From Chrysochromulina tobinii (taxonomy: Eukaryota), in assembly GCA_001275005.1 (NCBI GenBank), contig JWZX01001686.1:1-35709 (forward strand): DNA of 35,709 bases. Direction: 5' to 3'. The position numbers and the translations under genes are program-made. Below, in pieces: positions 86 to 28,409 of this stretch; position 1 is the stretch's first letter; every line of letters begins with the position of its first letter. The notes under the pieces are model-generated. The model ran no database searches and had not been told where the DNA came from. It saw only the letters and a program-made list of their open reading frames with translations.

Positions 86-2521
86 ATGCTCGTTTTCCGG
101 CGGGCGGGCGTTTTGGAACTGGATCCAAAAAGGTTTGTACCCAGTTCCAAAGTCAAATGCCCCACCCGCCGCCTCCGTCCCATGCCCATCTCTGAGCCCG
201 CGTGCCCCACGTTGAGCCTCGTGACTTTCGAGCTTCCTGCGTTCACGGACCTCAACGGCAAGAGGCACAACGCTCGATTCTGCTACACGAGTGTAAGCGC
301 GAAGAACGGCGCGGTCCGGTGGGCTTATTCGGGTTCTAGCGTGCAGCGTAAGGAGAAGTTGAGAAAAGCCAATCCGCTCCTCAAAGAGGCGCCGCTGTCG
401 TACCTCCAGCATTTGGAGGCCGACGAGCCCAAGCACTACGCCGAGCTCTTGCATGCGACTTTCGGCACCGCGCCCACCGGCACGATGCAGAAGGTGTTCA
501 GTGCGCTTCTCGCTGAGCACCTCAGCTGCGCAGACAAGCGCAAGCTGGTGCTCGCGCTGCCGCTCGCCGACGTCACGAGCGCGCAAGCACAGGTGCTCAA
601 CCGCTCTGGCGGCGCGCCCGTCGCCCTGAACAAGCCAGCGTCGCTGGCGCGGATGCAGCGCGTCTTTGCCTCGCCCCAGGCCCTGCTCTCGTCGCCGCGC
701 TCCTCGGCGGGCTCCACGCCATCCTCGTTGACTCGCATCGTCGTCGACACTGTGTGGACGGGCGGCGCGGCGGCCGTTGAGGCTGTCAGAGGCCTGACGT
801 CGGTGATCAAGTCCTTGCAAAAGGATATGCGCTCGGCCGCCAAGGCGAGCGAGGCTCGCGACGTCGAGGCCGCGGCCGTGGCTCGGAGCACGAGAGGCGA
901 GCTCTTGGGTGAGTTCGACTCGGTGCGCGAGACCATCGTTTCCGAGGCATGTGCGATCAAGGATGAGGTTGTCGATGCGGCAGCCCTCATCACAGATCAG
1001 CTCGAGGAAGCTGCCGCTGCGGCCAGGATCGAGGCAAGGGAGGCCCAAGCTCGCGCCGCGGAGGCCAGGGCCGAGGCCGAAGCGCGCGCTGGGGAGGCCA
1101 GGGCCGAGGCCGAGGCGCAAGCTAATTATCGCAAGGAGCAACGCGCGGCGCAGCTCGCGGAGAAGAAGGCGCGCCTGGACGCCGAAGCGCGCGCACGGGA
1201 CGCCAACCGAACCATCGCCGGTGTGCTCGTCGACATAAAGCAGGACACAGTCAGTACCAAGGACATCACCCGCGCGGCCGCCGTGCAGGTGATGGAGGCG
1301 GCAGCCAAGATGTCCGAGGCAGCTGGGGTGGTGGCTGGCGTGGCTGAGGACCTCACGGATGCTACCGAGCAGGCGATTGACGCGGCAGCCGCGATGTCGG
1401 CGGCATCCAAAGTGGTGGTTCGCGCGGGTAATGCCGTCAAGGATGCTGCCGAACAGATGGTGTTCTCGATCGACGAGATGACGATCTCGATCGACGACAT
1501 CAAGTCGGGTGAATGGCTCGCCAAGGTCATCAATCCCCTCATTGCAGGTAAGCACATGGTAGACGAGGAGATGCTCCAGGAGGCGCTCGCCAAGAAGAAA
1601 GCCAAGGCGGCATCGTCGTGTGCGCCCGTCGTCCCGGCAGGAGTGTGCAAGTCCTCGCGGACCGCCGCCACTTCGGCACGCGGCAAGGCTCCGGCAGCCT
1701 CGGTCGCACCCTCGACCCGTTCGACCAGGGCGAGCGTGTCAAAGCCTGCGCCGCCGCCCGCTGTCAAGGGCGGCAAGACGGCCAAGGGTGGCAAGGCGGC
1801 CGCAGGCACGATGGCCAACAAGGTCGGCGAGGATCTCGCCCCCTCGGAGGACTGGCTCAAGCGCGTCCAGGCGGCGGGCGAGACCATCCGGATGGTCATC
1901 AACAGCGCCGTGACGAACGACAAGCTCGAGGAGACGCTCGAGGCGCTCGGCGAGGGCATCGTGAAGGCGATCTCTGCGCTTGAGTGCCAGGTCGTGTTCG
2001 CCATCCTAGAGTCCCTCGAGTATGTCTTCGATCAGCTGGGCCCGGCCGTGGGGCCTCTGCTGCTGTGCGGTGCCGCGGCTAAGGACGGCACGGTACTAGA
2101 TGCGCTGCTCAAGGCCGCCGCCAACCCGAAGTCCGCCCTTGTGCGCGAGGCCGCGCAGGCTACTGCCGTGCGCCTCATCAAGATTGCGCCGTCCGAGGAC
2201 GTGCTCAAAGTTGTGCTTCGCGTCGGGCGCAACGAGGCGAGCGCTGCCAAGACGTGCGTGTGTGCGGCGGAGCTCCTCAGCCTCCTTGTCACGCACCTGC
2301 CCAAGCTACCCGCCAAGCTGAGCAATGGTGTGGAACTATGCCTCATCAAGCTCCTCCAAGCGCCTCAAGAGGACGTGCGCGAGGTGGGCGCCAACGCGCT
2401 CATGTGCTTTTATGCGGTTGGCTGCAGCAGCGAAGCGCTCGCCATCATCGACAAGGTGACGGTGGACAATATGCCCCTGCGCAACAAGCTCTTCAAGCAG
2501 CTGGGGACTGACGCAGCATGA
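86..2521 (+). CDS. Intronless protein: unrecognised ~100-aa N-terminal domain + Ala/Glu coiled coil + basic low-complexity linker + C-terminal HEAT/TOG (CLASP-N-like) domain
   Basis: 811-aa ORF with GC3-rich codons; the true start may be ATG 182 (MPISEP). The N-terminal TFELPAF..GKRHNARFCYT..VRWAY..ANPLLKEAPLSYL aligns with the duplicated domain of the 13982 gene. The C-terminus has HEAT-like helices (SALVREAAQAT, LLQAPQEDVREVGANAL) resembling CLASP/TOG, recognised by eye. Confidence 0.75.
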   Translation: MLVFRRAGVLELDPKRFVPSSKVKCPTRRLRPMPISEPACPTLSLVTFELPAFTDLNGKRHNARFCYTSVSAKNGAVRWAYSGSSVQRKEKLRKANPLLKEAPLSYLQHLEADEPKHYAELLHATFGTAPTGTMQKVFSALLAEHLSCADKRKLVLALPLADVTSAQAQVLNRSGGAPVALNKPASLARMQRVFASPQALLSSPRSSAGSTPSSLTRIVVDTVWTGGAAAVEAVRGLTSVIKSLQKDMRSAAKASEARDVEAAAVARSTRGELLGEFDSVRETIVSEACAIKDEVVDAAALITDQLEEAAAAARIEAREAQARAAEARAEAEARAGEARAEAEAQANYRKEQRAAQLAEKKARLDAEARARDANRTIAGVLVDIKQDTVSTKDITRAAAVQVMEAAAKMSEAAGVVAGVAEDLTDATEQAIDAAAAMSAASKVVVRAGNAVKDAAEQMVFSIDEMTISIDDIKSGEWLAKVINPLIAGKHMVDEEMLQEALAKKKAKAASSCAPVVPAGVCKSSRTAATSARGKAPAASVAPSTRSTRASVSKPAPPPAVKGGKTAKGGKAAAGTMANKVGEDLAPSEDWLKRVQAAGETIRMVINSAVTNDKLEETLEALGEGIVKAISALECQVVFAILESLEYVFDQLGPAVGPLLLCGAAAKDGTVLDALLKAAANPKSALVREAAQATAVRLIKIAPSEDVLKVVLRVGRNEASAAKTCVCAAELLSLLVTHLPKLPAKLSNGVELCLIKLLQAPQEDVREVGANALMCFYAVGCSSEALAIIDKVTVDNMPLRNKLFKQLGTDAA

Positions 2522-2797
2522 ATGTGTGGATATGAGGAGCTAAATGGTCGCCCGCCTCCTCGCGGCGCACCTCGGGCAATGCCGGTCATCCCATCGACTC
2601 AGTATCCACTGACCAAGGTGCGCGCGCGGTTGCGGCGGCGGCTGATGTGCGCGGCGAAACACCTACGAACAGTGATAACAGAACTTTTACCTCAGAGCGG
2701 CGGGGTCCGGTAGCAAAGAGGCGACCAGGACTACATACGTGTGTGAGTCTCATTCGCATCTGCCGTGTGTGAGCAGTCGAGATGTGTGGGACACGTG
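2435..2797 (+). repeat. Dispersed duplication copy 1 (last ~28 codons + 3' flank), paired with 16719..17088
   Basis: Long near-identical tracts, e.g. GCGCTCGCCATCATCGACAAGGTGACGGTGGACAA and GCGGCGAAACACCTACGAACAGTGATAACAGAACTTT, occur at both loci. Confidence 0.95.
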
Positions 2798-3069
2798 TGC
2801 GTCAGGGAGGGTGTGCGCGGTCTGTCTGCGGCGCGGTGCTATGCGCCACGGTGTCCCTGAGCGTGAGCCTGAGTGCCTGACCCCCGCCCTTCGCTCTTGC
2901 CAGTGTGAGCTGTGTGAGCTGTGTGGGCCCGCGCTGGGTGACTGTGGCTGTGTGGGCGTGGAGAGAGTCGAGGAGAGAGGAAACTATGCAGCGCATTTTT
3001 TACGTCACGACCGTTCAATCAGCAGTGTCAGGCTGCTGATGACACACACGTGCCGCAACCCGCTGTCCG

Positions 3070-5766
3070 TCAATCAAATTCGCCCCTCGCGAAGAATTTG
3101 AGCCATTCGGATAAAGCTTCGTCCGCGAGCTCGCTAGGTGCGGCTGGGGCTACCAACTGCTCGGCGCCGCACTGCGAGGCGAGCCACCAGAGTTCCATGC
3201 CGTCGCTGATCTCGTCGTTGCCAGGGCCCACACCCGAAAGTTCCCACACGCGCGGCCAGAGGGCAGAGAGCGCCGTGCCGGGCGGCACCACCCGCATCTC
3301 GCTCGCGCTCAGCATGGCCGCGAGCTCCGATCTCGTGAACTGCTCACCACGGCGCGCACGAGAGGCCATCAGGGAGGCCATCAGGGAGGCCATCAGAGGG
3401 GCCATCAGAGGGGCCCTTCAGAGGGGCATTCAGAGAGGCCACCAGAGAGGCCATCAGAGGCTATCATCACCTGCACCACACCGCGAACGAGCACGAGGTC
3501 GGCAGGCTTGATCTGCGGCTCCTGACTGCTGCTGGCTAAGCTGCTGGCTGATTGCATGCTGCTAGCCGGCTGCAGCTTCGCAGTGACGTCACTCGGACTC
3601 ATCAGGAAGACGCCCGAGGTGCCCAACTGCACGCCGCCCAATTCGGCGCGATGGTGCAGCCACACCTGATGAGGGAAGCCATTAAACACCATCAGACGCA
3701 ATCTCAGACGCAATCTCAGACGCAATCTCAGACGCAATCTCAGACGCAATCTCAGACGCTCCTTCAGTGCCACTCCCGCCGCCCAAGACGGCGCCAGGTT
3801 CCGGCCGGTAGCAGCAACTGGGTACGAAGCTCATCAGAGAGGTCATCAGAGAGGTCATCAGAGAGGTCATCAGAGAGGTCATCAGAGAGGTCATCAGAGA
3901 GGTCATCAGAGAGGTAATCAGAGAGGTAATCAGAGAGGTAATCAGAGAGGCACCTGGGTACGAAGCTCGCGGTTGCCGCAATAGAGTGCGCGGCGCTCGG
4001 GTTTGCCTGGTAGCTGAAAGCGCATCACGTTCACAGTCGGCCTGTTGAGCACACAGGCACTGACCACGCCGCGCGCGCCCTCATCCGCCTATGCAAAGGG
4101 GGCGATCAGTGGTGATCAGAGGCGATCAGTGCAGTGGCAATATCAGGGGCAATCGGTAAGCTCATTATGAAAGGCAATCATGAGAGCCCAGCAGAGCCCA
4201 TCAAGCGCGGTACCTGCAGCACGAGCAGGATCGCCTTGTGCAGGAATTGGTCCTCAAGCAAGACACGGTCCGCCGGCCGGCCTGTGACGGGCGACACCGT
4301 CGAGAGCAGCACCGTACCCACCCGAATCGTCGCGCCCATCTCGGCGCCTTGCTGGGCGCCTTGCTGGGCGCTCATCTCGGCGCTCGGCTCGGCCGCGCCC
4401 TCCGTGTCGGCGGTTGGCGTCGCGCTGCCTTGGGCGTTCTCAGCGCGACGCTCGAGCACGGCGCGGTAGTACTCCGCTGCACTCGTAGTAGCCGGCGCTC
4501 GGAGCGTCGTCTTGGGCAGCAGATGGGCGCGCACCCATTCGGTGAGCATCCGGTCGGCGAGGCTGCCTGCGCTCTGGCGCACCTGATGACGGAAGCAATT
4601 AGGAAGCAATTAGGAAGCAATTAGGCTCAGTGATGCTCAGAGGCGCTCAGAAGTCATCCGAGGCGCTCCGCATGCATCAGAGGCCATCAGTCGCGTACAT
4701 CCTCTTCGCGCCCTATGCTCTTCATTAAGCTGGCCCAGGTCCCAATCCCCGTAATGGAGCCCACATTCGGCTCGTTGACCATCGAGACCTCTCCAGGCGG
4801 CGGGAGCTCGCGTGCTTCGCGGAGCATCTCCTTGAGCAGCGTCCCGCTGTCTGCCGCAGCGAGGTACCAGCTCCCACGCTGCTCCAGCTCCATCTGCAGC
4901 TGGCCAGGCGCCCAACCGCTGTAACCAACACACACCCAAAAGTCCGACCGCTTGGCCACCCCTGCCATCACAAGGGCCTTGGCGCTGTCGAGGCTGCAGT
5001 ACGAGACGCCCTTGATCACGCGCGTAGAGACCTGATCAAGGGCGTAGAGTACAATCAATCAATAGAGTACAATAGAGTACAATCAGGTCTCTACAATGTA
5101 CAATAGAGTACAATCAGGTCTCTACAATCAATTGATTGATCACGCGCGTAGAGACCTGATCAATCGCAGGACGGCGGCCATCAGTCGCCATCAGTCGCCA
5201 TCCACGCTCATCAGTCGCAATCCACGCTCATCAGTGGCAATCCTCACCTGATCCACCAGGAAGCCTTCAAGCGCGTGCAGCGCGTTGATCTCGAGCTGTC
5301 CGCGCGCCTTGTCGGCGCCTAGAAAGATGCCGCCCTCGGCCACTTGGCCGTGCCCGCACCACAGGCGCCAGCCGTCCTGCTCGATCGCCGAGGGACGATT
5401 GAGGATGATGCCTTTGGTGAACGTCTCATCGTGCTGAAGAAGGAGCATGACCGACTTGTGGAAGAACTGCTGACGGAGCGCGAAGCCGAAGACCTGCTTC
5501 GTGCCGCCCATGAGGATCGAGCCCTGCTCGATGAGGGGCGTTTCGTAAGCGTAGCTGCCGGCGTAGCTGCCGTTGCTCGCCGCTGGCGTGCCGGATTCTT
5601 GTTCCTGGGCGACCAGTCGCGCGCGCATCTCACGCCAGTCGAGCTCCTCCTCGTTCATCGCGACGGATGCACGTCGTGAGAATATGACCGGAAGTGGCCG
5701 TGAGCTGATGGCCGGACGTGAGCTGATGGCGTGCGCCACCGCTGTGCACGTCATGAAAAAGAGCAT
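3070..5766 (-). CDS. Tandem DUF179 / AlgH-YqgE family protein, probably plastid-targeted (6 exons, ~606 aa)
   Basis: Deduced exons 5766-5248, 5031-4699, 4582-4214, 4088-3954, 3665-3471, 3339-3070, all GT-AG and phase 0. Motifs DWREMRARLV, FHKSVMLLLQH..GIILNRP, GYSGWAPGQLQMEL; a second degenerate domain has FLHKAILLVLQ..CVLNRP. The N-terminus looks like a signal peptide plus Ser/Arg-rich transit peptide. Confidence 0.85.
3361..3460 (-). repeat. Intronic 12-bp tandem repeat (AGAGGCCATCAG)n
   Basis: About 8 imperfect copies inside intron 3470..3340. Confidence 0.9.
3691..3950 (-). repeat. Intronic 12-bp tandem repeats (TCAGACGCAATC)n and (CATCAGAGAGGT)n
   Basis: Two arrays (3691-3760 and 3832-3950) inside intron 3953..3666. 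Confidence 0.9.
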
Positions 5767-9793: not shown

Positions 9794-10175
9794 GTGTTTA
9801 CGCGGTCGGAGGTGCGTATACGCAGAAACTTGTGTATACGCGAGGGGGTACGTATACGCACCCGCTGTGTATACGTACTACCGCTCGCGTATACGCACCT
9901 ACCTGCGTATATGCACCCGGGTGCGTGTACGCACCCGCTGCGTAAATGCACCCAGCGCTCGCGTATACACACCCACCCGCGTATACGCACCGGGTGCGTG
10001 TACGCAGGTAGGTGCGTATACGCACCCAGCGCTCGCGTAAACGCACTATTTCGCGTATACGCACCCGGGTGCGTAAACACACCTCTTGCATATACGCACC
10101 CAGCGTTCGCGTAAACGCGCTTTCTCGCGTATACACACCTGGGTGCGCATTCACGCACCCCCTGCGTTTACGCAG
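9794..10175. repeat. Array of ~21 palindromic GCGTATACGC-like units with 74-bp higher-order period
   Basis: Cores at 9814, 9832, 9850, 9867, 9887, 9905, 9923, 9940, 9961, 9979, 9996, 10014, 10035, 10053, 10071, 10088, 10109, 10127, 10145, 10164, plus a degenerate one at 9794. Confidence 0.9.
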
Positions 10176-10405: not shown

Positions 10406-11976
10406 ATGCAACTACGTCGCGACGAGGCTGAGCCGAGGGTGACCACGGTGATCTGGGTCGGCGGCACCTCGGCTCTGGCGCGCACCTACTTCGACGAGGT
10501 TCACCCGACCGTCCGCGATCGCTTGCACATTGTGGTCGCCGCACCGGCGCTGCCGTCGTGGACTCTGCCCAAAGTTGGCGTGAGCTTCGTGGCACTCGAC
10601 CTCCTTGACGTGAAGAGCGTCGACTCGTTTTTCTCGCGGCCGGAGCTACTCGACACATATCGCACGGGGCCGAGCGTCATGATCATCGGCGTGCGCCTTT
10701 CCCTCGTGTGGGCCGGCTCTCGCCAGAGCACGCTGGCGGCCCACCTGGGGCGCCTGATCTCGCGTGCAGCCGTTGCGGGCTGCCTGGGCGTGGTGCACAT
10801 CTCGTCGGTGGCCGTCGCCGACCACGTGGTCTCGCAACACAATGTCAGCGAGTCCGCACCGCTCCCCGCCCTCGACGCCTATCATAGCGACTATGATCGC
10901 TTCAAGAGGCTGAGTGAGGTGATCGTAGATGACGAGTGTACGAAAGCCAACGAGAGGGCCGCGCTGAGCGGGGAGACGCGAATGATGGTGTGGACGCACC
11001 TTCGCATCTCGGGCATCTTCTCCAATGACCCCGCGTGCATCCAGTGCACGGCGGTGCGCAACCAGGCCTACATCTCAGCTTACTCGAGCACGTGCATCGA
11101 TTTCAACTCCTCAGCCAACGTCTCCCACGCCATCACGCTTCTCGTCGAGCGGATCGTGAGAGTGGTCACGGCTCTTCCGGCCAGCGCGGACCCGAGCGTG
11201 CCCGTCGAGTGTGCAGCCAATCTGGATGGTCGTCGGGTGCAGCGTGTCTACTACTACACGCGCGCCACGACGGCGCCTGTGCCCTACGGCGCCCTCGTGG
11301 CCGACTACCGGTGATTACAATATGCTCTGCTGATGGCGCCTGATGGCGCCTGATGGCGTCTGATGACCTCTGATGACCTCTGATGGCCTCGGATGGCCTC
11401 TCTTATGACCTCGGATGGCCTCTCTTATGACCTCTGATGGCCTCTGAGTTCAGGTCTGCTCACGGCATCCAGTACGGCGTGTGGTTGCCCGAGATCCTCT
11501 ACCTCGGCTTTGTGCGCTGCGTACAAGCTCTGTGCGCGCTCTGCCGCTGGCTCGCCCTCGCGCGGTCGGTGGCGTACCTCCTCGCAGTCTCAGTAAGTGC
11601 CTCTGATGATACCTCTGATGATGCCTCTGACTGCCTCTGATGACCTCTGATGACCTCTGATGACCTCTGATGACCCCTGATAGCCTCTGATGACCCCTGA
11701 TAGCCTCTGATGACCTCTGATGACCGCTGATGACCGCTGATGACCTCTGATGTCCCCTGACTGCCTCTGATGGCCTCGGATTGCACACGTGGACAACTAC
11801 AGGTCGCGGATCACACGTTCGACTGCTCACGCTTCCGCGAGGACTTCCCCGAGATGCAAGCACGCGAGGAGTCCATCCGCGAGTGCTTCGTGCGCATCCG
11901 ACAACGGCAGGAGGAGGCGCTGGCGCTGTCGCGGGCGGATGCACTAAGCCGATCGGACACGGCCAAGTTGGGCTGA
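10406..11976 (+). CDS. NAD-dependent epimerase/dehydratase-like (atypical extended SDR), 3 exons, ~405 aa
   Basis: Exons 10406-11310, 11454-11592, 11803-11976. Degenerate Rossmann VIWVGGTSALA, VVHISSVAV, catalytic YDRFK (YxxxK), C-terminal HTFDCSRFREDF. Confidence 0.8.
11328..11780 (+). repeat. Intronic decamer arrays (CTGATGACCT/CTGATGGCCT)n in two introns
   Basis: Arrays at 11328-11447 and 11600-11780, separated by exon 2. Confidence 0.9.
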
Positions 11977-12040
11977 CGTGCCCAAGTCGGCGCTGGCGCT
12001 GTCGCGGGCGGATGCACTAAGCCGATTGGACGCGGACCTC

Positions 12041-12241
12041 AAGTGACTGGATGCCACGGCCGTCTCCTTCGAGTTTCGTTAAGTGACTGGATGCCACGGC
12101 CGTCCCTTCGAGTTTCGTTAAGTGACTGGATGCCACGGCCGTCCCTTCGAGTTTCGTTAAGTGACTGGATGCCGCGGCCGTCCCTTCGAGTTTCGTTAAG
12201 TGACTGGATGCCACGGCCGGCGCGTCCCTTCGAGTTTCGTT
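12041..12241. repeat. 39-bp minisatellite x5 between convergent genes
   Basis: Unit AAGTGACTGGATGCCACGGCCGTCCCTTCGAGTTTCGTT starting at 12041, 12081, 12120, 12159 and 12198, head to tail with no spacers. Confidence 0.95.
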
Positions 12242-13981: not shown

Positions 13982-16805
13982 ATGTCGAGCCGCACGACTT
14001 TTGACATTCCAGCTTTCGACCTCGACGGGAAGAAGCACAATGCGCGACTTGCCTACACGATCGCGAAGCACGGCGTGGTCAGGTGGGCCCATACACACGG
14101 CAATGCGCAGCGCCAAGAGTTGCTCGCCCGAGCCAATCCGTTCCTAGAGGAGGCGCCGGTGTCGTACCTCCGATGGCTGGAGGACAACGAGCGCGAGTAC
14201 TTCAAAAAGATTTTGTGCGCTAGCTTTGGCAACGGCAAGATGCAAACAGTGTTCAGGGCGCATCTTACTGAGCACCTTGCAGACAAGCGCGAGCTGGTGC
14301 AACCCGCTGTGCCGCCCAACATCTTCGACGATGTCGAGCTGCCGGCCGAGGAGGTCGGGGCGGGCGCGGACGGCGCGGCCGCTGTTGAGGGCGTGCCAAA
14401 AATTGCCAGCCGTGTGCAAGAGTGCAAATCTCTGTCGAGCCGCACGACTTTTGACATTCCAGCTTTCGACCTCGACGGGAAGAAGCACAATGCCCGACTT
14501 GCCTACACGATCGCGAAGCACGGCGTGGTCAGGTGGGCCCATACACACGGCAATGCGCAGCGCCAAGAGATGCTAGCCAAAGCCAATCCGTTCCTAGAGG
14601 AGGCGCCGGTGTCGTACCTCCAATGGCTGGAGGACAACGAGCGCCTCGACGAGCGCGAGTACTTCAAAAAGATCTTGTGCGCTAGCTTTGGCAACGGCAA
14701 GATGCAAACAGTGTTCAGGGCGCATCTTACTGAGCACCTTGCAGACAAGCGCGAGCTGGTGCAACCCGCTGTGCCGCCCAACATCTTCGACGACGTCGAG
14801 CTGCCGGCCGAGGAGGTCGGGGCGGGCGAGGCCGCTGCTGAGGGCGTGACGCCGCCCACCCCGGTGCCGTCCGCGCCGTCGTCCCACCTCTCGCCCGGCA
14901 CCGTGGAGCGTGTCGCCGATGCCATGGTCCAAGGCATGGTGGCACGCATCACGCCGCTCCACGAGCGCACGCACTCGGCCGTCCGCGACACGCACTCGGC
15001 CGTCCTCCAGGGGACCGCCGAGGTCAAGTCGGAAGTCAAGAACAGCGCCGCCGAGGTGAAGGCCGAAGTCAAGGCCGGCGCCACCGAGGTGAAGGCGCTC
15101 ATTTTGCACAGCCAGGAGAAGGCGGTCAAGGGCTTCGCCGCTCTGGCAATGCAAAATGCGCAGTCGCTTGCGCAGATGATGCAGGCGCTCGGCCTGGTCA
15201 CAGAGCACGTGACCGAGGCCGTGACCGAGGCCGCAAAGGCCGCCGTCGAGGCCACCGAGCGCGTGGGCGCCGTGGCTGAGAAGACGCTGACCGAGGCGTC
15301 GGGCGCACGCGCCGCCGCCGTCGGTGCTGAGGCAGCGGCGACCGAGGGCCTCTGCGTCACGCGGGAGGTGCTGGCGATCGTCAAGGAGATGGAGACTCGT
15401 CTGGATGCGCTCGCGTTCGAAAAGGACAAGAAGGAGGCGATCGTGGGGCTGCTCGTGAACGCCCCCGTGGCGCGAGAGCTCTCGGGCTGCAATAAGATCA
15501 TCGGCACGTGCGTCGATCTCATCCAAGGCCTGCCCTCTGTCGAGGAGAGCAGGGCGGCGGATGCCGAGGAGGCGCTCCGGGCGGAAGCGGCCGCCAAGGC
15601 CGAGGCTGAGGCGGCGGCTGCGGCCAAGCGCACTGCCAGCCTCCGCGGAGGCTCCGCGGGCCTCGCGCGTGCGCCGCCCAACGCGTCGAACACCCCAAAG
15701 ATTGTCAGCAAGAAGCCCAAGGCGGCGCCGGCGTCTGGCCGTGGCGGCACGAAGGCGGCGCTGACGGTGGCAGTAGAGACGATCGCCGCCCCCGAGTCCG
15801 ACTTCCTCAACGCCTCGGACAAGCAGGTGGCGCTGCGCGAGCTCATCACTTTGCTGCCGATGGTGCCCAACGAGAATCTCCTCGAGCTGCTCGCGCCCAA
15901 GGGCTACGTGACGCTAGCCCTCGTGTGCGCCCTCTCCTACAAAAAGTCGGCCGTCGTCACCACCGCCGCCGAGGTGCGTGCTCACGCGCCATCCCGCTGC
16001 ACGCGCGCGCCGCTCCACGCGCCGCCCGCTCTCGTCCGCTCAACTCGCTATGCCATGGCTGCAGGTCCTCGAGAAGCTGCTCGGCCTGCTGGAGTGCAAG
16101 CAGGCGGCGCAGCTGCTCGTCCAGGGCACGATCCGCACCGTGCTGCAGCAGTGCATGCGCGCCAAGGACGTCGCCGTGTGGCGCGCCTGCGGGCTGCTCG
16201 CGCCCTCGATGATGGCCAAGGCGCCTTCCTTCCCGGCGCTCGACATCGCCCTCGATGCGACCAGGCATGATCCGAAGGACCCTGTGGCGAAGCATCCGGG
16301 CTGCCGTGAGGCGGCGGGCATGGCGCTGTGCGCCGTGCTCCGAGTCGGCCCAAAGCTCGACTTCTACAAACAGGCATGCCCACCCTCACCCTCGCCCGCC
16401 CTCTCTGCCCTCTCCGCCTTACTCTCCGCCTCCAGCGCTGCTGCTGCTCTCTCGCCACCCAGCTGACCGCGCACGCATTCACTGGCACGCTTCCCATCAC
16501 AGCTCATCCACCAGTCAAATTTGGACGCCATCGTGAGCGCGATCGCGCGTCTCGCCGACTCGCCGGGCAAGCCGGCCACGTCGCATGCCAACACGCCCGA
16601 CGTGCGCCTTCAGGGCGTCGAATGCTGCGTGGCACTGCATACCTTCAGCCCGCAGGGCGCTAAGTCCGTGATCATGTGCCTCGCCCACAATGGCGCCATA
16701 TGCGACCGCCTGAAGGAGGCGCTCGCCATCATCGACAAGGTGACGGTGGACAAGATGCCTCTGCGCAATCAGCTCCTGAAGCAGCTGGGACCTGACGCAG
16801 CATGA
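13982..16805 (+). CDS. Paralogue of the 86..2521 gene with the N-terminal domain duplicated, coiled coil and divergent HEAT/TOG-like C-terminus (3 exons, ~863 aa)
   Basis: Exons 13982-15973, 16065-16373, 16515-16805; intron 1 is GT-AG and intron 2 is GC-AG. Splicing joins ORFs 13736, 15978 and 16521 in frame. It ends ALAIIDKVTVDKMPLRNQLLKQLGPDAA, like the paralogue. Confidence 0.78.
13983..14845 (+). repeat. 450-bp in-frame tandem duplication of the N-terminal domain
   Basis: TGTCGAGCCGCACGACTTTTGACATTCC starts at 13983 and 14433. The copies are nearly identical; the second has a 9-bp insertion (ERLDERE). Confidence 0.97.
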
Positions 16806-17472: not shown

Positions 17473-17797
17473 AATCGGTGGGGTCAACTGCTTCCCCCTC
17501 GCGGAGAAAAACGAACGGCTCGGCACTCAATTCGTCTGATACGTATTTCGTTTCGGAACGACGTAGTGTTTAGTAGTTTAGTAGGAGGTGACGCGGTACG
17601 ATATGTGCCCGAAGAACCGCAAGTTTTTCGAGGTTGCCAGCTGCCGCACTGATGATCGGTGGGGTCAACTGGCGAAGGTAACGGCTCGACGCGATCGTTT
17701 CGTATTTCGCCCCATAACCAGAACAAATCCCCACAATCCTCTCCCGCACGCTGTGACACGGATGACCCGAACGAAGGCCGCAAGTTTTTCGAGGTCG
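17473..17797 (+). repeat. Degenerate ~160-180-bp direct repeat upstream of the second ion channel gene
   Basis: Ordered blocks ATCGGTGGGGTCAACTG, AACGGCTCG, CGTATTTCG and CCGCAAGTTTTTCGAGGT each occur twice (17473-17635 and 17654-17795). Confidence 0.8.
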
Positions 17798-17802
17798 GAG
17801 CA

Positions 17803-19428
17803 ATGCATCGCGCCGCGACGTCGCCAGCGCGCGAGAGCCCGGCGACGAGATACTCTCTCGACCCCAGGTACCTGAAACAGGTGCAGGCCGCACACGGTGA
17901 GCCTGAGGCACAGCCTGCGGCACAGCCTGCGGCACAAATGCCTTGGCTGGCCGACAACGTCGCTACGGGGCTCACAGGGGCACCCGTTGCTCCTGTGGTC
18001 GTCGCTCAGCGCAGCGCGACGTCGCCAGCGCTGCAGCGCATCCATTCCACCACATCCAGTGCCGGGTCCCAAGAGCCGGCGCCGTCGAGTCGCAACCCTT
18101 CCGTCCCCGGGTCCCGAGAGCCCCCGGACGATCTTTTGTGGGATATGATGATGCAACGTCAGCGGGAGCCGTGCTACGTGGCCTGCCGGCTGTGGGGCGT
18201 GAACGAGATCGACTTCAAGAGAATGCGGGCGGTTATGGTGTTTCGCGTCCACCTCATCTTTCGGCCGCGCAAGGAGGCCCTGCAGTTCTTGCCACCAAAA
18301 GGCAAACGCGTCAACTCGGAAGAGGAAGCGTGGAAAGAGCTCGAGAAGATCGAGGCGCTCCCGACCTTGAGCGTCCTCAACGGCAAACCGGTTTTCACAA
18401 GCAAGCAGGAGTTCTTCCGGATGTTCGACGCCAAAAGCGTCTACGACGACACTAACGAAGTGGAGATCTGGTTCCCGCCTCTGCAGCCCAATGATGAGCG
18501 CGAGGGAACCATCGCCGTCCTGACGGGCCAGATGGAGGTGACGGACGTTCAGCTCGACTTCAACTTCGAAGAGTTCCCCTTCGACGCACACGAGCTCTGT
18601 GTCAAGCTCTTCCTTCCCAAGAAGCACAAGGACAAGATGTACGAGCTCCATTGCGACCCCAACATGCGTGTGAAGTCGGAGAGCATCAAGGCCAAGGAGG
18701 AGGGCGGCCAAGGCATCCTCGAGGTAAAGCCAGACGTTAAGAAAAGCCTCTTCGAGTGGGAGATTATCCCGGAGAACACCGAGCTAGTCAGGAACGAGAA
18801 TGCTACGGGCGAGCAGTCGGGTGTTACGATGCGCATTGGCATCCGTCGCATTCCGCAGTATTACGTGACCAAGTTCCTTATCCGTCCGGGCGTGATCGCC
18901 GCGCTTGCGTGCGTGTCGACGTTCATCCTGTCCGACAATATTGGCGATCGGCTCGCGCTCACGTTCACCATCCTTCTCACGCTTACCGGCATCAACTACA
19001 CGTCCTCGGACTCGCTGCCCGCGCTGCCCTACTCGACGGCGCTCGACAAGTATCACGAGGCGTGCCACTACTTAGTGTACGGCGTCATCGCGCACAATGT
19101 AATCTTCTTCCTCTACGCCTTCCGGTGCTCTAAGTCATGCGCCGCCGAGCCCACCACCAACACCGCTGCGGGCACCGTCGATCCCACGATGGCGGCGTGT
19201 ATCGCAAGCGCGGATGCGCCATGCGCCGCGGCGGCGGAGGTCGCCGACGTCGCCGCGACCGTTGCCTCGAGGTGGTGCAGCATGTGCGGGTACAATATCG
19301 TTGTCGACTACTGGATCCTTCTCGACCTCGACGACTTCGTCATGTCTTTCATCTTCGCCTACTGGATCTACTGGAACGTCAAGTGGTTCGCCGCCCACAA
19401 CTTCAAGTGGTTCGGCACTCACAAGTGA
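17803..19428 (+). CDS. Cys-less (Pro-loop) pentameric ligand-gated ion channel subunit, copy 2
   Basis: FNFEEFPFDAHEL Pro-loop, RRIPQYYVTKFLIRP, GDRLALTFTILLTLT, SDSLPALPYSTALDKY; collinear with 6129..7622. First ATG in the ORF is 17803 (alternatives 17938 or ~18145). Confidence 0.87.
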   Translation: MHRAATSPARESPATRYSLDPRYLKQVQAAHGEPEAQPAAQPAAQMPWLADNVATGLTGAPVAPVVVAQRSATSPALQRIHSTTSSAGSQEPAPSSRNPSVPGSREPPDDLLWDMMMQRQREPCYVACRLWGVNEIDFKRMRAVMVFRVHLIFRPRKEALQFLPPKGKRVNSEEEAWKELEKIEALPTLSVLNGKPVFTSKQEFFRMFDAKSVYDDTNEVEIWFPPLQPNDEREGTIAVLTGQMEVTDVQLDFNFEEFPFDAHELCVKLFLPKKHKDKMYELHCDPNMRVKSESIKAKEEGGQGILEVKPDVKKSLFEWEIIPENTELVRNENATGEQSGVTMRIGIRRIPQYYVTKFLIRPGVIAALACVSTFILSDNIGDRLALTFTILLTLTGINYTSSDSLPALPYSTALDKYHEACHYLVYGVIAHNVIFFLYAFRCSKSCAAEPTTNTAAGTVDPTMAACIASADAPCAAAAEVADVAATVASRWCSMCGYNIVVDYWILLDLDDFVMSFIFAYWIYWNVKWFAAHNFKWFGTHK

Positions 19429-24126: not shown

Positions 24127-27100
24127 ATGGGGAAGAAGGATGAGCGTAAGAAAAAGGAGGAGGAGCGTCAAATGTCTCGGGAACTCGACGCCGACCTGGT
24201 CGATGAGAGTCTCGCTCGCCAGGCTGCGAAGCTGAGCACGAAGCCGGTGATCGACAAAGGCGTGGAGGAGCTCTTCGAGAAGAAGCTGACCAAGGAGGAG
24301 AAGAAGGAGCTGGCGGCCAAGAAGAAGGCGGAGCGAGAAGCACGCAAGGCGGCAGCAGGGGCAGATGCTGGGGGCGACTGTGACGACGACGACGAAGCTG
24401 GGGCACCCGGCACCACGGATCCGGCGTCGGCGGCCAAGGCGAAGACTACGAAGGCGAAGCCCGAGACGAAGGCGGATAAGGTGCTGCGCGAGGCCGCGCT
24501 TCTCGACCAGGAGCTTGAGGAGGCGCGCGTGCGCGCCGTGCGCCTTCGCAACGCCGAGGGTGCTTACCTCGGCCAGATCGAGGCGACGGGATTCTCGTTA
24601 GCCAACCCGGGCGGCGGCCCCGATCTGCTCGAGCGTGCGAGCTACACGCTGCAGCGAGGGCGGTCGTACGGTCTCGTGGGCCGCAACGGGTGCGGCAAGA
24701 GCACGTTACTCAAGGCGATGGCCTCGCGGCGTGTGGGGAACATCCCGCCGGCTGTGACGGTGCACTACGTGTCTCAAGAGGTCGTCCTGACCGAGGCGAC
24801 GCTCAAGATGACGCCCGTGGAGGTGGTGGTGAACGCGGACGTGGAGCGTCGGCTCTTGCTCGAGGAGCGTGACGCGCTGCTGGCGGCGGAGGCACGCGGA
24901 GAGCCCATCGATGGCGAGCGGCTGCAGGGGCCCGGTGGTGTGCTGGAGCAACTTCAGCTGATGGACGAGGAGACGGTCGAGAGGTGAGTGCGTCTGAGTG
25001 CATCGGAGTGCATCGGAGTGCATCTGAGTGCATCTGAGTGCGTCTGAGTGCATCTGAGTGCGTCTGAGTGCATCTGAGTGCGTCTGAGTGCATCTGAGTG
25101 CGTCTGAGTGCATCTGAGTGCATCTGAGTTCATCCGAGTGCATCGGAGTGCATCGGAGTGCGACTAGTTGCCTCGGTTGCCCTCAGATGCCCTCCCTGGT
25201 TGCATCTGATGGTCTCCCTCATCAGCTGATGCCCTCCCTGATCGCTCCCCTTCCTCAGGCGCGCCACGACGCTGCTGGTCAACCTCGGCTTCTCTGACGA
25301 GCTGCGCGCCCGTCCGATGGCGGCCCTCTCCGGCGGCTGGCGTGTTCGCACATGCCTCGCCGCGGCGATCTTCGGCAAGCCGGACATGTTGCTGCTCGAT
25401 GAGCCAACGAATCACCTGTCGATCGGAGCGGTGCTCTGGCTCGCTCGGGAGCTCAAGACGAACCCTACCTGGTGAGTGCCGTTGATTGCCGTTGATTGCC
25501 TCGGATGGCCTCGGATGGCCCCTGCTTGCGTCTGAGTGCGTCTGAAGACCTGACTGATGACGTCTGATTGCACGCCTCATCAGAGAGGATAGGATCATCG
25601 TCACTGATGACGTCTGATTGCGCGCCTCATCAGGGAGGATAGGATCATCGTCACTGATGACGTCTGATTGCGCGCCTCATCAGGGAGGATAGGATCATCG
25701 TCGTGGTGAGTCACGATCGCTTCTTCCTTGACTCGGTCTGCGGCGACATCTTGCACGTCTCGGGCGTCGCCAAGCGCCTCTCACAGTCCCACGGCTCATA
25801 CTCCACCTGGGCCCAGCGCCGTGCCGAGCAGCAGAAGGCCTTCGCGCGAGCAGTCGAGCTCCGGCGTGCCGAGATCGCCGAGCTCCGTGAGTACGCGGGG
25901 CATGGCTTCAAGTACGGCGGCTCGGGCTCGCAGATCGCCAAGATGCAGATGAAGGCTAAGCAGGTGCATCTGGAGGAGGAGTACCTCTGAGTGCCTATGA
26001 TGGGCTCTGATTGCCTCTGATTGCCTCTGATTGCATCTGGAGGAGTACCTCTGAGTACCTCTGATTGCCTCTGATTGCCTCTGATTGCATCTGGAGGAGG
26101 AGTACCTCTGATTGCCTCTGATTGCCTCTGATTGCCTCTGATTGCCTCTGATTGCCTCTGATTGCCTCTGATTGCCTCTGACTGACTATGATAGGCTCTG
26201 ATTGCCTCCGAGTGCCTCTGAGTTGCTGTGATTGGTTCCCTCCTCAGGCCGATAAGCTCGAGGAGGAGGAGGAGGCGGAGAAGGAGGAGCTGGCCGCGCT
26301 GCAGGAGGACGTCGAGCTCCCCCTCAATCTCAAGGTACGTTGATTACCACTGATTACCACTGATTACCACTGATTGCCACTGATGACGTCGAGCTCCCCC
26401 TCAATCTCAAGGTACGTGGATTGCCACTGATGACCTGCCTGGCATGCAAGTGCTCACCACGGCGCTGCGGGCTCCCCTGAATCTCAAGTCGGGAGGCCAG
26501 ATCGATTGCCCCTGATGACCTGCCTGGCATGCAAGTGCTCACCACGGCGCTGTGGCTCCCCTGACTCTCAAGTCGGGAGGCCAGATCGACGGCTTTTGTG
26601 TGCAGCTGCGCGGCGTCGCATTCGGGTACCCGGGCTCCGACGCGCCTCTCTTCCGCAACGCCGAGCTGTCGGTGGACACGAAGTCGCGCATTGTGCTGCT
26701 CGGCGAGAATGGGAACGGCAAGTCGACCCTCTGATGGGCTCTGATGGCCACTGATGGCCACTGATGGCCACTGATGGCCACTGATGGGCTCGGATGGGCT
26801 CTGATGGGCTCTGATGGGCTCTGATGGGCTCTGATTGCCTCTGTTGGCCTCTTGATGGCCTCTTGATGGCCTCTGATGGCCTCTGATTGCCTCTGATGGC
26901 CTCTGCGTGCATGTGATCGCCTCCATCATCAGGCAAGTCGACCCTCGTGAAGCTGATGACGGGATCACTCGAGCCAACCGAGGGCGAGATCAAGCGCAAC
27001 GCTAAAGTGCGGATCGCCATCGTCAATCAGCACCACGCCGACCAGCTCAACCTCGAGATGACGCCCATTGAGTTCATGAAGCATAAGGTGAGCGCTCGTC

Positions 27101-28409
27101 GCAGCGCTCGCGATCATTGCGCTCGATGACGATCGATGGCGACGGAATGCCACTACCCTGTACTTCCATCGATTGTACTCAGTAGTTGCCTCTGATTGGC
27201 ACCGGTGGACTCGAATGGCCTCTGAGTGCCACCCGACACTTGCGTCCACCCGACGCTTGCGTTGCCTCGTCCTGTTCCCTGGGACGCTCTGCAGCGCACT
27301 GACGAACCCTGCTGATGGCTCTGCTGCGCACTGACGAACCCTGCTGATGGCTCTGCTGCGCACTGACGAACCCTGCTGACGGCTCTGCTGCGCACTGACG
27401 AACCCTGCTGACGGCTCTGCTGCGCACTGACGAACCCTGCTGACGGCTCTGCTGCGCACTGACGAACCCTGCTGACGGACCATCCTGCGCACTGACGAAC
27501 CCTGCTGACGGCTCTGCTGCGCACTGACGAACCCTGCTGACGGACCATCCTGCGTTGCCTCGTCCAGTTCCCTGGCGATGGCTCGGCGGCGCACGACACG
27601 CTGCTACGCTCGCATCTCGATCGGATGGGGGTGCCCACAGTGAAGCAGACGGTGCCGGCGTATGGCTTGTCCGGCGGGCAGCGCTCTCGCGTCGCTCTCG
27701 CGGCCGTCTCGTAAGTCGAGCTTTGATTGCACGTGATCTCGTATGTCGAGCTTTGATTGCACGTGATCTCGTATGTCGAGCTTTGATTGCACGTGATCGC
27801 CTCCTCATGGCCTCAGATGGCCTCCTTCATCAGGTACTCCGCCCCTTGGGAGATTGCATCTGAGTGCGTCTGAGTGCGTCCCTCATCAGGTACGTCGAGC
27901 CGCACATCCTCGTGCTCGACGAGCCTACGAACAACCTTGACCTTGAGTCCGTGGCAGCGCTCGCGGATTGCGTCGAGCGCTTTGATGGGGGCGTCATCCT
28001 CGTGTCGCACGACCAGGTACCTCTGATGACCTCTGATGACCTCTGATGACCTCTGATGGCCTCTGATGGCCTCTGATGGCCACTGATGGCCTCTGATGGC
28101 CTCTGATGGCCTCTGATGGCCTCTGATTGCCTCTGATTACCTCTTAGTGCCTCGAACCGCCACTGATGGCCGCGCCATCGCCCCGTACGCGCAGTACTTC
28201 GTGGGACGGGTGGCCTCTCTGAGTGCCTCTGATGACCTCTGATGACCTCTGATGACCTCTGATTGCCGCACGCGCAGTACTTCGTGGGACGGGTGGCCAG
28301 GGAGGTGTGGCTCGTCGCGAAGCAGGCCGTCAGCCGGGTTGAAAGCTTCGAAAAGTACCGCGACTACCAGCTCAAGAAGCTCGCCCCCCTGGTGGTCGAC
28401 GTCAATTGA
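24127..28409 (+). CDS. ABC-F family ATPase (GCN20/ABCF3-like), 9 exons, ~712 aa
   Basis: Exons 24127-24983, 25259-25471, 25684-25963, 26248-26334, 26573-26717, 26933-27087, 27568-27710, 27890-28016, 28278-28409 (2139 nt, open frame). Two NBDs: GRNGCGKST/LSGGWR/LLLDEPTNHL/VSHDR and GENGNGKST/LSGGQR/LVLDEPTNNLD/VSHDQ; no TM domain. Intron 5 is GC-AG. Confidence 0.93.
24985..25162 (+). repeat. Intronic decamer array (CTGAGTGCAT/CTGAGTGCGT)n
   Basis: About 17 copies in ABC-F intron 1. Confidence 0.95.
26006..26222 (+). repeat. Intronic decamer array (CTGATTGCCT)n
   Basis: ABC-F intron 3, interleaved with three TGCATCTGGAGGAG..TACCTCTGA blocks. Confidence 0.95.
27294..27552 (+). repeat. Intronic 32-bp minisatellite x8
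   Basis: GCGCACTGACGAACCCTGCTGACGGCTCTGCT units in ABC-F intron 6. Confidence 0.95.

Follow-up and report, generated by a model that had tools for sequence, protein, structure and literature searches.

We analysed a stretch of 35,709 nucleotides from Chrysochromulina tobinii (contig JWZX01001686.1, forward strand; the whole stretch is called the window below), which has a GC content of about 0.62 and is eukaryotic nuclear DNA. It carries a gene of nine exons for an ABCF3-like protein of the ABC-F family. The fifth intron of this gene splits the second Walker A motif (P-loop), is bounded by two identical 15-base sequences, and was probably gained by the insertion of intron-type satellite DNA with a duplication of 14–15 bases of its target. 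Haptophyte ABC-F proteins aligned to all nine exons, the best relative (protein P0001) being 78% identical over exon 1, and the Pfam domain ABC_tran matched two stretches of this orthologue as well as exons 1 and 6 of the window. One homologue is labelled 'ATP-binding cassette subfamily F protein 3' in its source record; the cluster of another (P0004) includes a protein named by its source as Emiliania huxleyi, and that of a third (P0009) a Diacronema protein. The introns of the window are filled with tandem arrays, mainly of 10–12-base units built on CTGATG (102 rows in Tandem Repeats Finder). The coordinates of all features are collected in Table 1.

The sequence GGCAAGTCGACCCTC was found twice on the plus strand with 100% identity and a spacing of 215 bases. 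The repeat ends at exactly 15 bases, the outer neighbours of the two copies being unequal (C and A before them, T and G after them). Between the copies, Tandem Repeats Finder reported an array with a period of 10, 17.6 copies, 90% matches and the consensus CCTCTGATGG, and 3′ of position 26905 this array runs out into a degenerate tail, ...GTGATCGCCTCCATCATCA. An earlier note on this DNA had described a perfect 15-base duplication with CTGATGG-type decamers between its copies, and both parts of this description were borne out. When the window was shuffled 200 times, block-wise and with dinucleotides preserved, exact 15-base direct repeats lying 40–700 bases apart occurred at a mean of 0.08 per shuffle, and at least one was present in 13 of the 200 shuffles. 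Among 20,000 random GT/GC..AG pseudo-introns, a junction match of 15/15 was reached at a frequency of 5e-05. On account of these low background levels, we conclude that the pair is not a chance event. The ends of the insert form inverted termini of just 5 bases (TGATG...CATCA), the RNA fold of the intron was unremarkable (z = −1.31), and an Rfam search of the window gave no match.

Intron 5 is a spliced GC–AG intron of phase 1, which splits the Gly codon before the P-loop Lys. The repeat allows 16 equivalent cuts, and canonical ends (GC..AG) are found at 26718..26932 only; this cut restores GENGNGKSTLVKLM. Compared with P0001, the splice from 26718 (GCAAGT) to 26932 (ATCATCAG) scored 158, the next candidate 114, and its product was SVDTKSRIVLLGENGNGKSTLVKLMTG. 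Furthermore, position 26716 is directly followed by 26932 in assembled RNA contigs of two studies, a check across the junction that the earlier note had proposed; the joint skips 215 bases, with 15 ambiguous letters and with 151 letters on the shorter side. The joint was present in one contig each of X11 (poly-A, depth 35.5) and X12 (depth 3.88). The X12 contig also spans the tail of intron 3 (26230–26247; from 26155 in a wider mapping) and therefore represents partly spliced RNA of this locus, not an intronless gene copy. The RNA joint and the splice to P0001 confirmed the view that the donor GCAAGT consists of the G-K-S codons of the motif, and that splicing to CATCAG restores it. GC–AG introns of the U2 type usually carry a strong extended donor, and GCAAGT differs from GTAAGT solely at +2. 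We found 13 sense-strand CTGAY motifs in the intron, the last CTGAT lying 36 bases before the acceptor, and 5–6 stop codons in each frame; retention of the intron would stop the frame immediately (CTC TGA).

The distribution of the intron among relatives was examined by scanning metagenomes with eight aligned orthologues, which returned 39 loci. One of these (L001) is the window's own organism and ends short of the intron 5 site. Another, from a related haptophyte (L004, 74% protein identity), holds query residues 445–707 in one open frame and reads through the site uninterrupted (...AAC GGC AAG ACG ACC CTC GTC AAG CTG...). The comparison with orthologues that the earlier note had proposed thus found intron 5 absent and the exon continuous. 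L004 is also without introns 1, 2, 4 and 6–8; the position of intron 3 (KQ|A) is common to both, and one further intron is peculiar to L004. A tree of 17 proteins grouped L004 with P0008 (100/100) as sister (90/89) to a clade of seven proteins (100/99) that contains the window and the E. huxleyi orthologue. Because L004 reads GGC AAG unbroken, the exonic G|GCAAG is older than intron 5. L004 is the sole orthologue with genomic DNA at this site and a deep relative, so the gain of intron 5 is dated to some point after the split from L004. The unbroken exon of L004 and the RNA joint both spoke for the interpretation given by the earlier note, which is supported as the most economical history; for its description of the site as a snapshot of gain, the date obtained is too coarse. 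The two 15-mer copies show 0 differences in 15 bases; no constraint is known for 8 of these (intron positions +7 to +14), and in the exon copy five fall on third codon positions. From these counts we infer that divergence between the copies is at most roughly 0.2 changes per site.

Several other loci from the scan touch on the P-loop region or on intron content. L002 and L003 were considered as intronless orthologues and rejected; the tree places L002 with the paralogue P0020 (100/100), so they have no dating value. The ABC-F gene of an AT-rich eukaryote (L008, GC 0.39, 42% identity) has, within 2380–2560, a GT–AG intron of 81 bases and phase 1 in its P-loop (GPNG|AGKT), two codons 5′ of the position in the window. 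It is not at the same site, and would seem to have struck a Gly codon of the P-loop motif independently. The introns of L004 (1975–2135, 695–950) hold other repeats, which are CCCAAA/CCCTAA-like and CACC-rich, so lineages differ in the satellite with which their introns are filled.

We then compared the junctions of all 15 modelled introns of the window, namely eight in the ABC-F gene (from RNA or homology), five in the DUF179 gene (from homology to P0166) and two predicted from sequence alone. In a 15-base window the best junction match was 15/15 for intron 5, 13/15 for intron 4 and 12/15 for intron 7, and at most 11 for the other twelve. The 99.9th percentile of the pseudo-introns was 11, which was also the maximum when donors and acceptors were swapped among the eight ABC-F introns (5 of 56 pairs). 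Counted within the window, flank copies of the kind that the earlier note had proposed to count genome-wide were thus significant in 3 of the 15 introns. The last 15 bases of intron 4 (CCCCTGACTCTCAAG, 26558–26572) match the last 15 bases of exon 4 (CCCCTCAATCTCAAG, 26320–26334) at 13/15, an inner copy at 26474–26488 matches at 14/15, and the similarity ends at 15 bases. At the other junction, the first 11 bases of intron 7 (GTAAGTCGAGC) and those of exon 8 (GTACGTCGAGC, 27890–27900) agree at 10/11. L004 has neither intron 4 nor intron 7, its exons being continuous at the two sites, and intron 3, which is shared with L004, has a junction match of 8/15. In introns 5 and 7 the donor comes from the duplicated target and the acceptor (...CATCAG) from the insert, and in intron 4 the arrangement is reversed; both layouts are among those described for introners (PMC9860276). 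Introns 5, 4 and 7 look like an age series of one process, in which introns 4 and 7 would be older gains with decaying copies of the scar and the shared intron 3 has none.

Two further introns with a match of 11/15 each, intron 8 and the last DUF179 intron, were rejected as footprints; they did not rise above the swap control. A 15-mer pair on the minus strand at 3954–3968 and 3818–3832 was considered as a second new intron and rejected by the P0166 homology and an open frame. The copy at 3954–3968 is the exon end at a donor, and that at 3818–3832 lies inside a single intron of 288 bases (3953..3666) of a two-domain DUF179 gene. This 15-mer, which extends to 19 bases with one mismatch, flanks an array of 12-mers, and its inner pseudo-donor is TT, not GT. 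As read from homology and frame, the pair is a duplication across an existing donor and not an intron gain.

Tandem duplications at splice junctions were found in several introns of the window (Table 1), and the insert of intron 5 was compared with its flanks against this background. The interior of intron 5 was unlike both flanking exons (p = 0.17 and 0.79 in a first test, 0.16 and 0.62 in a second). The same flank test detected the tandem duplications of introns 6, 4 and 8, which served as positive controls (all p ≤ 0.0003). In intron 6, the start of exon 7 has been amplified into an array of 32-mers (p = 0 of 2000–3000 shuffles). Intron 4 has a duplication of 77 bases, made up of the exon 4 end with its donor, and intron 8 one of 83 bases, made up of its acceptor and 21 exon bases. 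Intron 2 (a 50-mer in three copies) and intron 7 (a 30-mer in three copies) also have arrays that span a junction. Such duplications leave pseudo-donors or pseudo-acceptors with 4–27 exon bases inside the introns.

Within the window, the closest relatives of the insert were found in the same gene. Of its sequence, 37 of the 185 interior 16-mers of intron 5 recur in intron 8 and 11 in intron 3, none in four other introns of the ABC-F gene, and 0–3 in seven introns of other genes. The longest exact match of the interior, 34 bases, was with intron 8, with which it also has the rare unit CCACTGATGG in common. Because introns 8 and 3 are its nearest kin, the sequence comparison weakly favours a neighbouring intron as the template from which the insert was copied, in the course of break repair or by a template switch. 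A 17-base motif common to introns 5 and 7 (TGCAYGTGATCGCCTCC) was rejected as a conserved element, as it consists of degenerate array units, and a search with a 22-base pattern matched its own site only. When prokaryote genome contigs were scanned for the array, 29 loci were obtained. Three of the contigs (L053, L055 and L068) are short, are filed in bacterial metagenome-assembled genomes and have introns of the same style (donor, CTGATGAC arrays and a ...CCTCATCAG acceptor); they are probably algal DNA that was wrongly binned, and they yielded no further flank-copy intron.

The orientation of the array units was tallied separately. CTGAY, which resembles the branch-point consensus, occurs 132 times in sense and 11 times in antisense orientation in the 15 modelled introns (with one intron boundary one base off), and five times in sense and twice in antisense orientation in 2139 exon bases of the ABC-F gene. 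The 10-base unit contains TGA, and all frames are therefore stopped.

Insertion with target-site duplication is the likely and most economical history of this arrangement, and we prefer it because one event accounts for the entire layout. The ancestral exon would have been unbroken (...AAC GGC AAG TCG ACC CTC GTG...), as the relative's still is. About 200 bases of the usual intron filling, sense CTGATG-type 10-mers ending in ...CATCA, would have been inserted into it with a duplication of 14–15 target bases. The donor would have been taken from the pre-existing G|GCAAGT of the first copy, and the acceptor composed of the last A of the insert and the first G of the second copy. Splicing would then take out exactly the insert and one copy, leaving the protein unchanged. 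The branch-point-like CTGAY motifs of the array would aid splicing of the insert from the outset, and the stops in three frames would send unspliced RNA to degradation. More tentatively, the insert may have come from a neighbouring intron of the same gene, copied during repair of a staggered break or by a template switch.

Several results weigh against this history. Twelve of the 15 modelled introns are without a significant footprint. The duplicated lengths are uneven (11, 15 and 15 bases, and 19 in the within-intron case), and therefore no single enzyme is indicated. Junction-spanning duplications are common in the ABC-F gene (introns 2, 4, 6, 7 and 8), so the 15-mer pair may be of secondary origin. 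The state of L004 may reflect an intron loss in its own lineage; it is a deep relative, and the closer lineages (P0001–P0004) lie outside the comparison. The RNA evidence consists of assembled contigs rather than raw reads, and the joint was found in two of the four RNA runs mapped, X14 and X16 being without it. As to the local source of the insert, quick turnover of array DNA could have wiped its traces.

Among the other explanations, one agrees that intron 5 was gained by insertion and differs on the mechanism: a discrete mobile element, either an introner-type transposon or a target-primed reverse-transcribed RNA, would have made a target-site duplication of about 15 bases with machinery encoded elsewhere in the genome. 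Duplications of roughly 7–20 bases are typical of LINE-type retroposition, and the similarity at introns 5 and 4 ends at exactly 15 bases. As in introners described in PMC9860276, the duplication supplies one splice site and the insert the other, but the duplications given for introners in that account are of 3–9 bases and those seen here vary (11, 15 and 19). The interior, a degenerate array of 10-mers, is matched best by neighbouring introns, and a family with defined ends did not emerge; the inverted termini measure just 5 bases and the RNA fold is ordinary. We consider such an element possible but doubtful. It is improbable that intron 5 is an old intron that was lost in the L004 lineage, with a 15-mer pair that arose secondarily from a junction-spanning duplication followed by deletion or loss of its upstream part. 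The junction-spanning duplications in introns 2, 4, 6, 7 and 8 and in the first DUF179 intron fit such a course of events, as does the perfect DUF179 15-mer pair that turned out to lie at the donor of, and inside, an existing 288-base intron; seven introns, moreover, were lost from L004 or never present in it. At least two precise events would be needed, however, namely a duplication and then the exact removal of what separated the inner copy from exon 5. Outside the two copies lie the halves of one continuous conserved exon, and it is the intron shared with L004 that has no footprint, whereas three lineage-specific introns have one.

The arrangement could also have started as a tandem duplication of an exon segment beginning with GCAAGTCGACCCTC, whose first copy became the intron and whose interior was overwritten by expansion of a CTGATG seed. 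The same process can be demonstrated in introns 6 and 4, and the conserved K-L-M-T codons provide CTGATGAC 7 bases after the second 15-mer. We nevertheless regard this as unlikely: the interior has no significant similarity to either flank, the 14 intron bases of the first copy would have stayed intact while the adjoining bases were wholly replaced, and the same 10-mers fill the introns of other genes. Finally, the insert or the duplication might be an artefact of assembly and missing from the real DNA. Assembling arrays of 10-mers is difficult, DNA contigs do break in this one, and the best DNA runs may be the window's own assembly data. On the other hand, a DNA-run contig from a separate set is identical to the window over 26876–27323, a stretch that runs from the array through the second 15-mer and exon 6 into intron 6. 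The splice signals of the insert work, its removal from RNA is exact and the reading frame is preserved. An artefact is accordingly very improbable, and insertion with a target duplication is the reading that we retain.

This insertion can be set beside the known routes of intron gain. The target duplications of introners are given as 3–9 bases, including 4 for a Chrysochromulina family, in PMC9860276 and bioRxiv 10.1101/2020.10.14.339549. According to the same sources (PMC9860276 Fig. 2B), the 3′ splice site is part of the element in introners of Symbiodinium and of Polarella classes 4/5 and 6/8/10, whose 5′ site comes from the target-site duplication. Intron 5 resembles the introners so described in that a direct repeat of host sequence flanks it, with the donor inside its first copy and the acceptor where the insert ends, in that the coding sequence is unchanged after splicing, and in that it is absent from the orthologous site of a relative. 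It is unlike them in the length of its duplication (15 against 3–9 bases), in being without clear terminal inverted repeats, in its body, which is a degenerate 10-mer satellite and not a conserved element, and in its donor, which is GC since the Gly-Lys codons read GGCAAG. New introns of Daphnia have short direct repeats and were attributed to staggered double-strand breaks and their repair (Li et al. 2009, as summarized in PMC3443670). Like those in that summary, intron 5 is lineage-specific, its insert is unrelated to the flanks and its direct repeats overlap the splice sites; unlike them, its repeat is probably longer, and its insert resembles a copy of the satellite of other introns. In the AGGT model, as outlined in PMC3443670 and PMC4974935, an intron arises by tandem duplication of an exon segment. 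Intron 5 shares with this outline that duplicated exon sequence gives a splice site and that one copy's worth is spliced out, but its interior is not exon-derived and its acceptor is no duplicate of the donor context. A literature search on haptophyte intron arrays, GC–AG introns and introners, which did not extend to the E. huxleyi genome paper, did not find the pattern, and the C. tobin genome paper has a single mention of introns.

We therefore regard intron 5 as a clear yet not unprecedented case of intron origin, in which the 15-base copy is likely the scar of the insertion. Gain with flanking duplications is itself well documented; new here are the length of the duplication, the satellite insert and the GC donor derived from Gly-Lys-Ser codons. 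It is conceivable, and offered here as a tentative generalization, that a process of intron-making is still active in this haptophyte, in which pieces of the 10-mer intron satellite, rich in branch-point-like motifs and stops, are copied into exons with long and variable target duplications (11–19 bases), and that the ABC-F gene records three successive gains (15/15, 13/15 and 10/11), one of them in the P-loop. As part of the same tentative reading, the 11–19-base signature, which no described introner transposase is known to leave, would fit the repair of staggered breaks or the target-primed reverse transcription of RNA from introns.

The origin of spliceosomal introns is an old question, and datable cases whose mechanism can be read are few outside introner-bearing species. 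At this one site the whole anatomy of a gain is readable, with an invariant P-loop split, a donor derived from codons, and an acceptor that is half insert and half target. If a duplication of about 15 bases should prove general in the genome, the intron-making process would be unlike that of the known introners with their 3–9 bases, and haptophytes would offer a test system. In addition, gene finders that are blind to GC donors and repeat-filled introns would break the ABC-F gene.

Table 1. Features of the ABC-F gene, of the intron 5 site and of other introns in the window (positions are those of the window)
Feature	Position	Strand	Basis or remark
ABC-F (ABCF3-like) gene, 9 exons, 8 introns, 712 codons	24127..28409	+	tblastn of P0001–P0003, splice model, open spliced frame, Pfam ABC_tran
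Intron 4, GT..AG	26335..26572	+	RNA joint
Exon 5, ends ...GAG AAT GGG AAC G (G-E-N-G-N-G, second Walker A)	26573..26717	+	homology splice, RNA joint
First 15-mer copy, GGCAAGTCGACCCTC	26717..26731	+	1 exon base and first 14 intron bases; contains donor GCAAGT (26718–26723)
Intron 5, 215 bases, GC..AG, phase 1	26718..26932	+	RNA joint (X11, X12), homology splice
CTGATGG-type 10-mer array, 17.6 copies	26728..26905	+	Tandem Repeats Finder
Degenerate array tail, ...GTGATCGCCTCCATCATCAG	26906..26932	+	acceptor AG: A from insert, G from second 15-mer
Second 15-mer copy	26932..26946	+	exon 6 from 26933 on (G-K-S-T-L)
Exon 6	26933..27087	+	homology splice, RNA joint, Pfam
Intron 7, GT..AG	27711..27889	+	homology splice
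Two introns predicted from sequence alone	11311..11453; 11593..11802		
Junction-spanning tandem duplications, 30–85 bases	25553–25702; 26305–26435; 26397–26590; 27258–27575; 27707–27798; 28183–28298; 5012–5163		

Other repeats were found elsewhere in the window. Perfect islands at 17474–17795, ATCGGTGGGGTCAACTG (181 bases apart) and CCGCAAGTTTTTCGAGGT (161 bases apart), are interleaved in a duplication of about 170 bases that has otherwise diverged and that closely precedes an open reading frame starting near 17804; they may be conserved regulatory motifs. Inside an open reading frame, a perfect 17-mer at 17814–17830 and 18015–18031 recurs after 201 bases (67 codons) in frame, and each copy encodes A-T-S-P-A; the sequence between the copies is covered by RNA contigs and is therefore not spliced out. 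These 17–18-mers at 17474–18031 were considered as intron-related and rejected, being unconnected with introns. At 13983–14828 there are two tandem copies of a unit of about 450–462 bases, nearly identical and with exact stretches of up to 119 bases. The positions 11915–12241 and 9814–10174, listed jointly, hold a 73-base tandem duplication with a 39-mer array of 4.6 copies at an apparent gene 3′ end, and a separate 74-mer array of 4.9 copies that is built on the palindrome GCGTATACGC.

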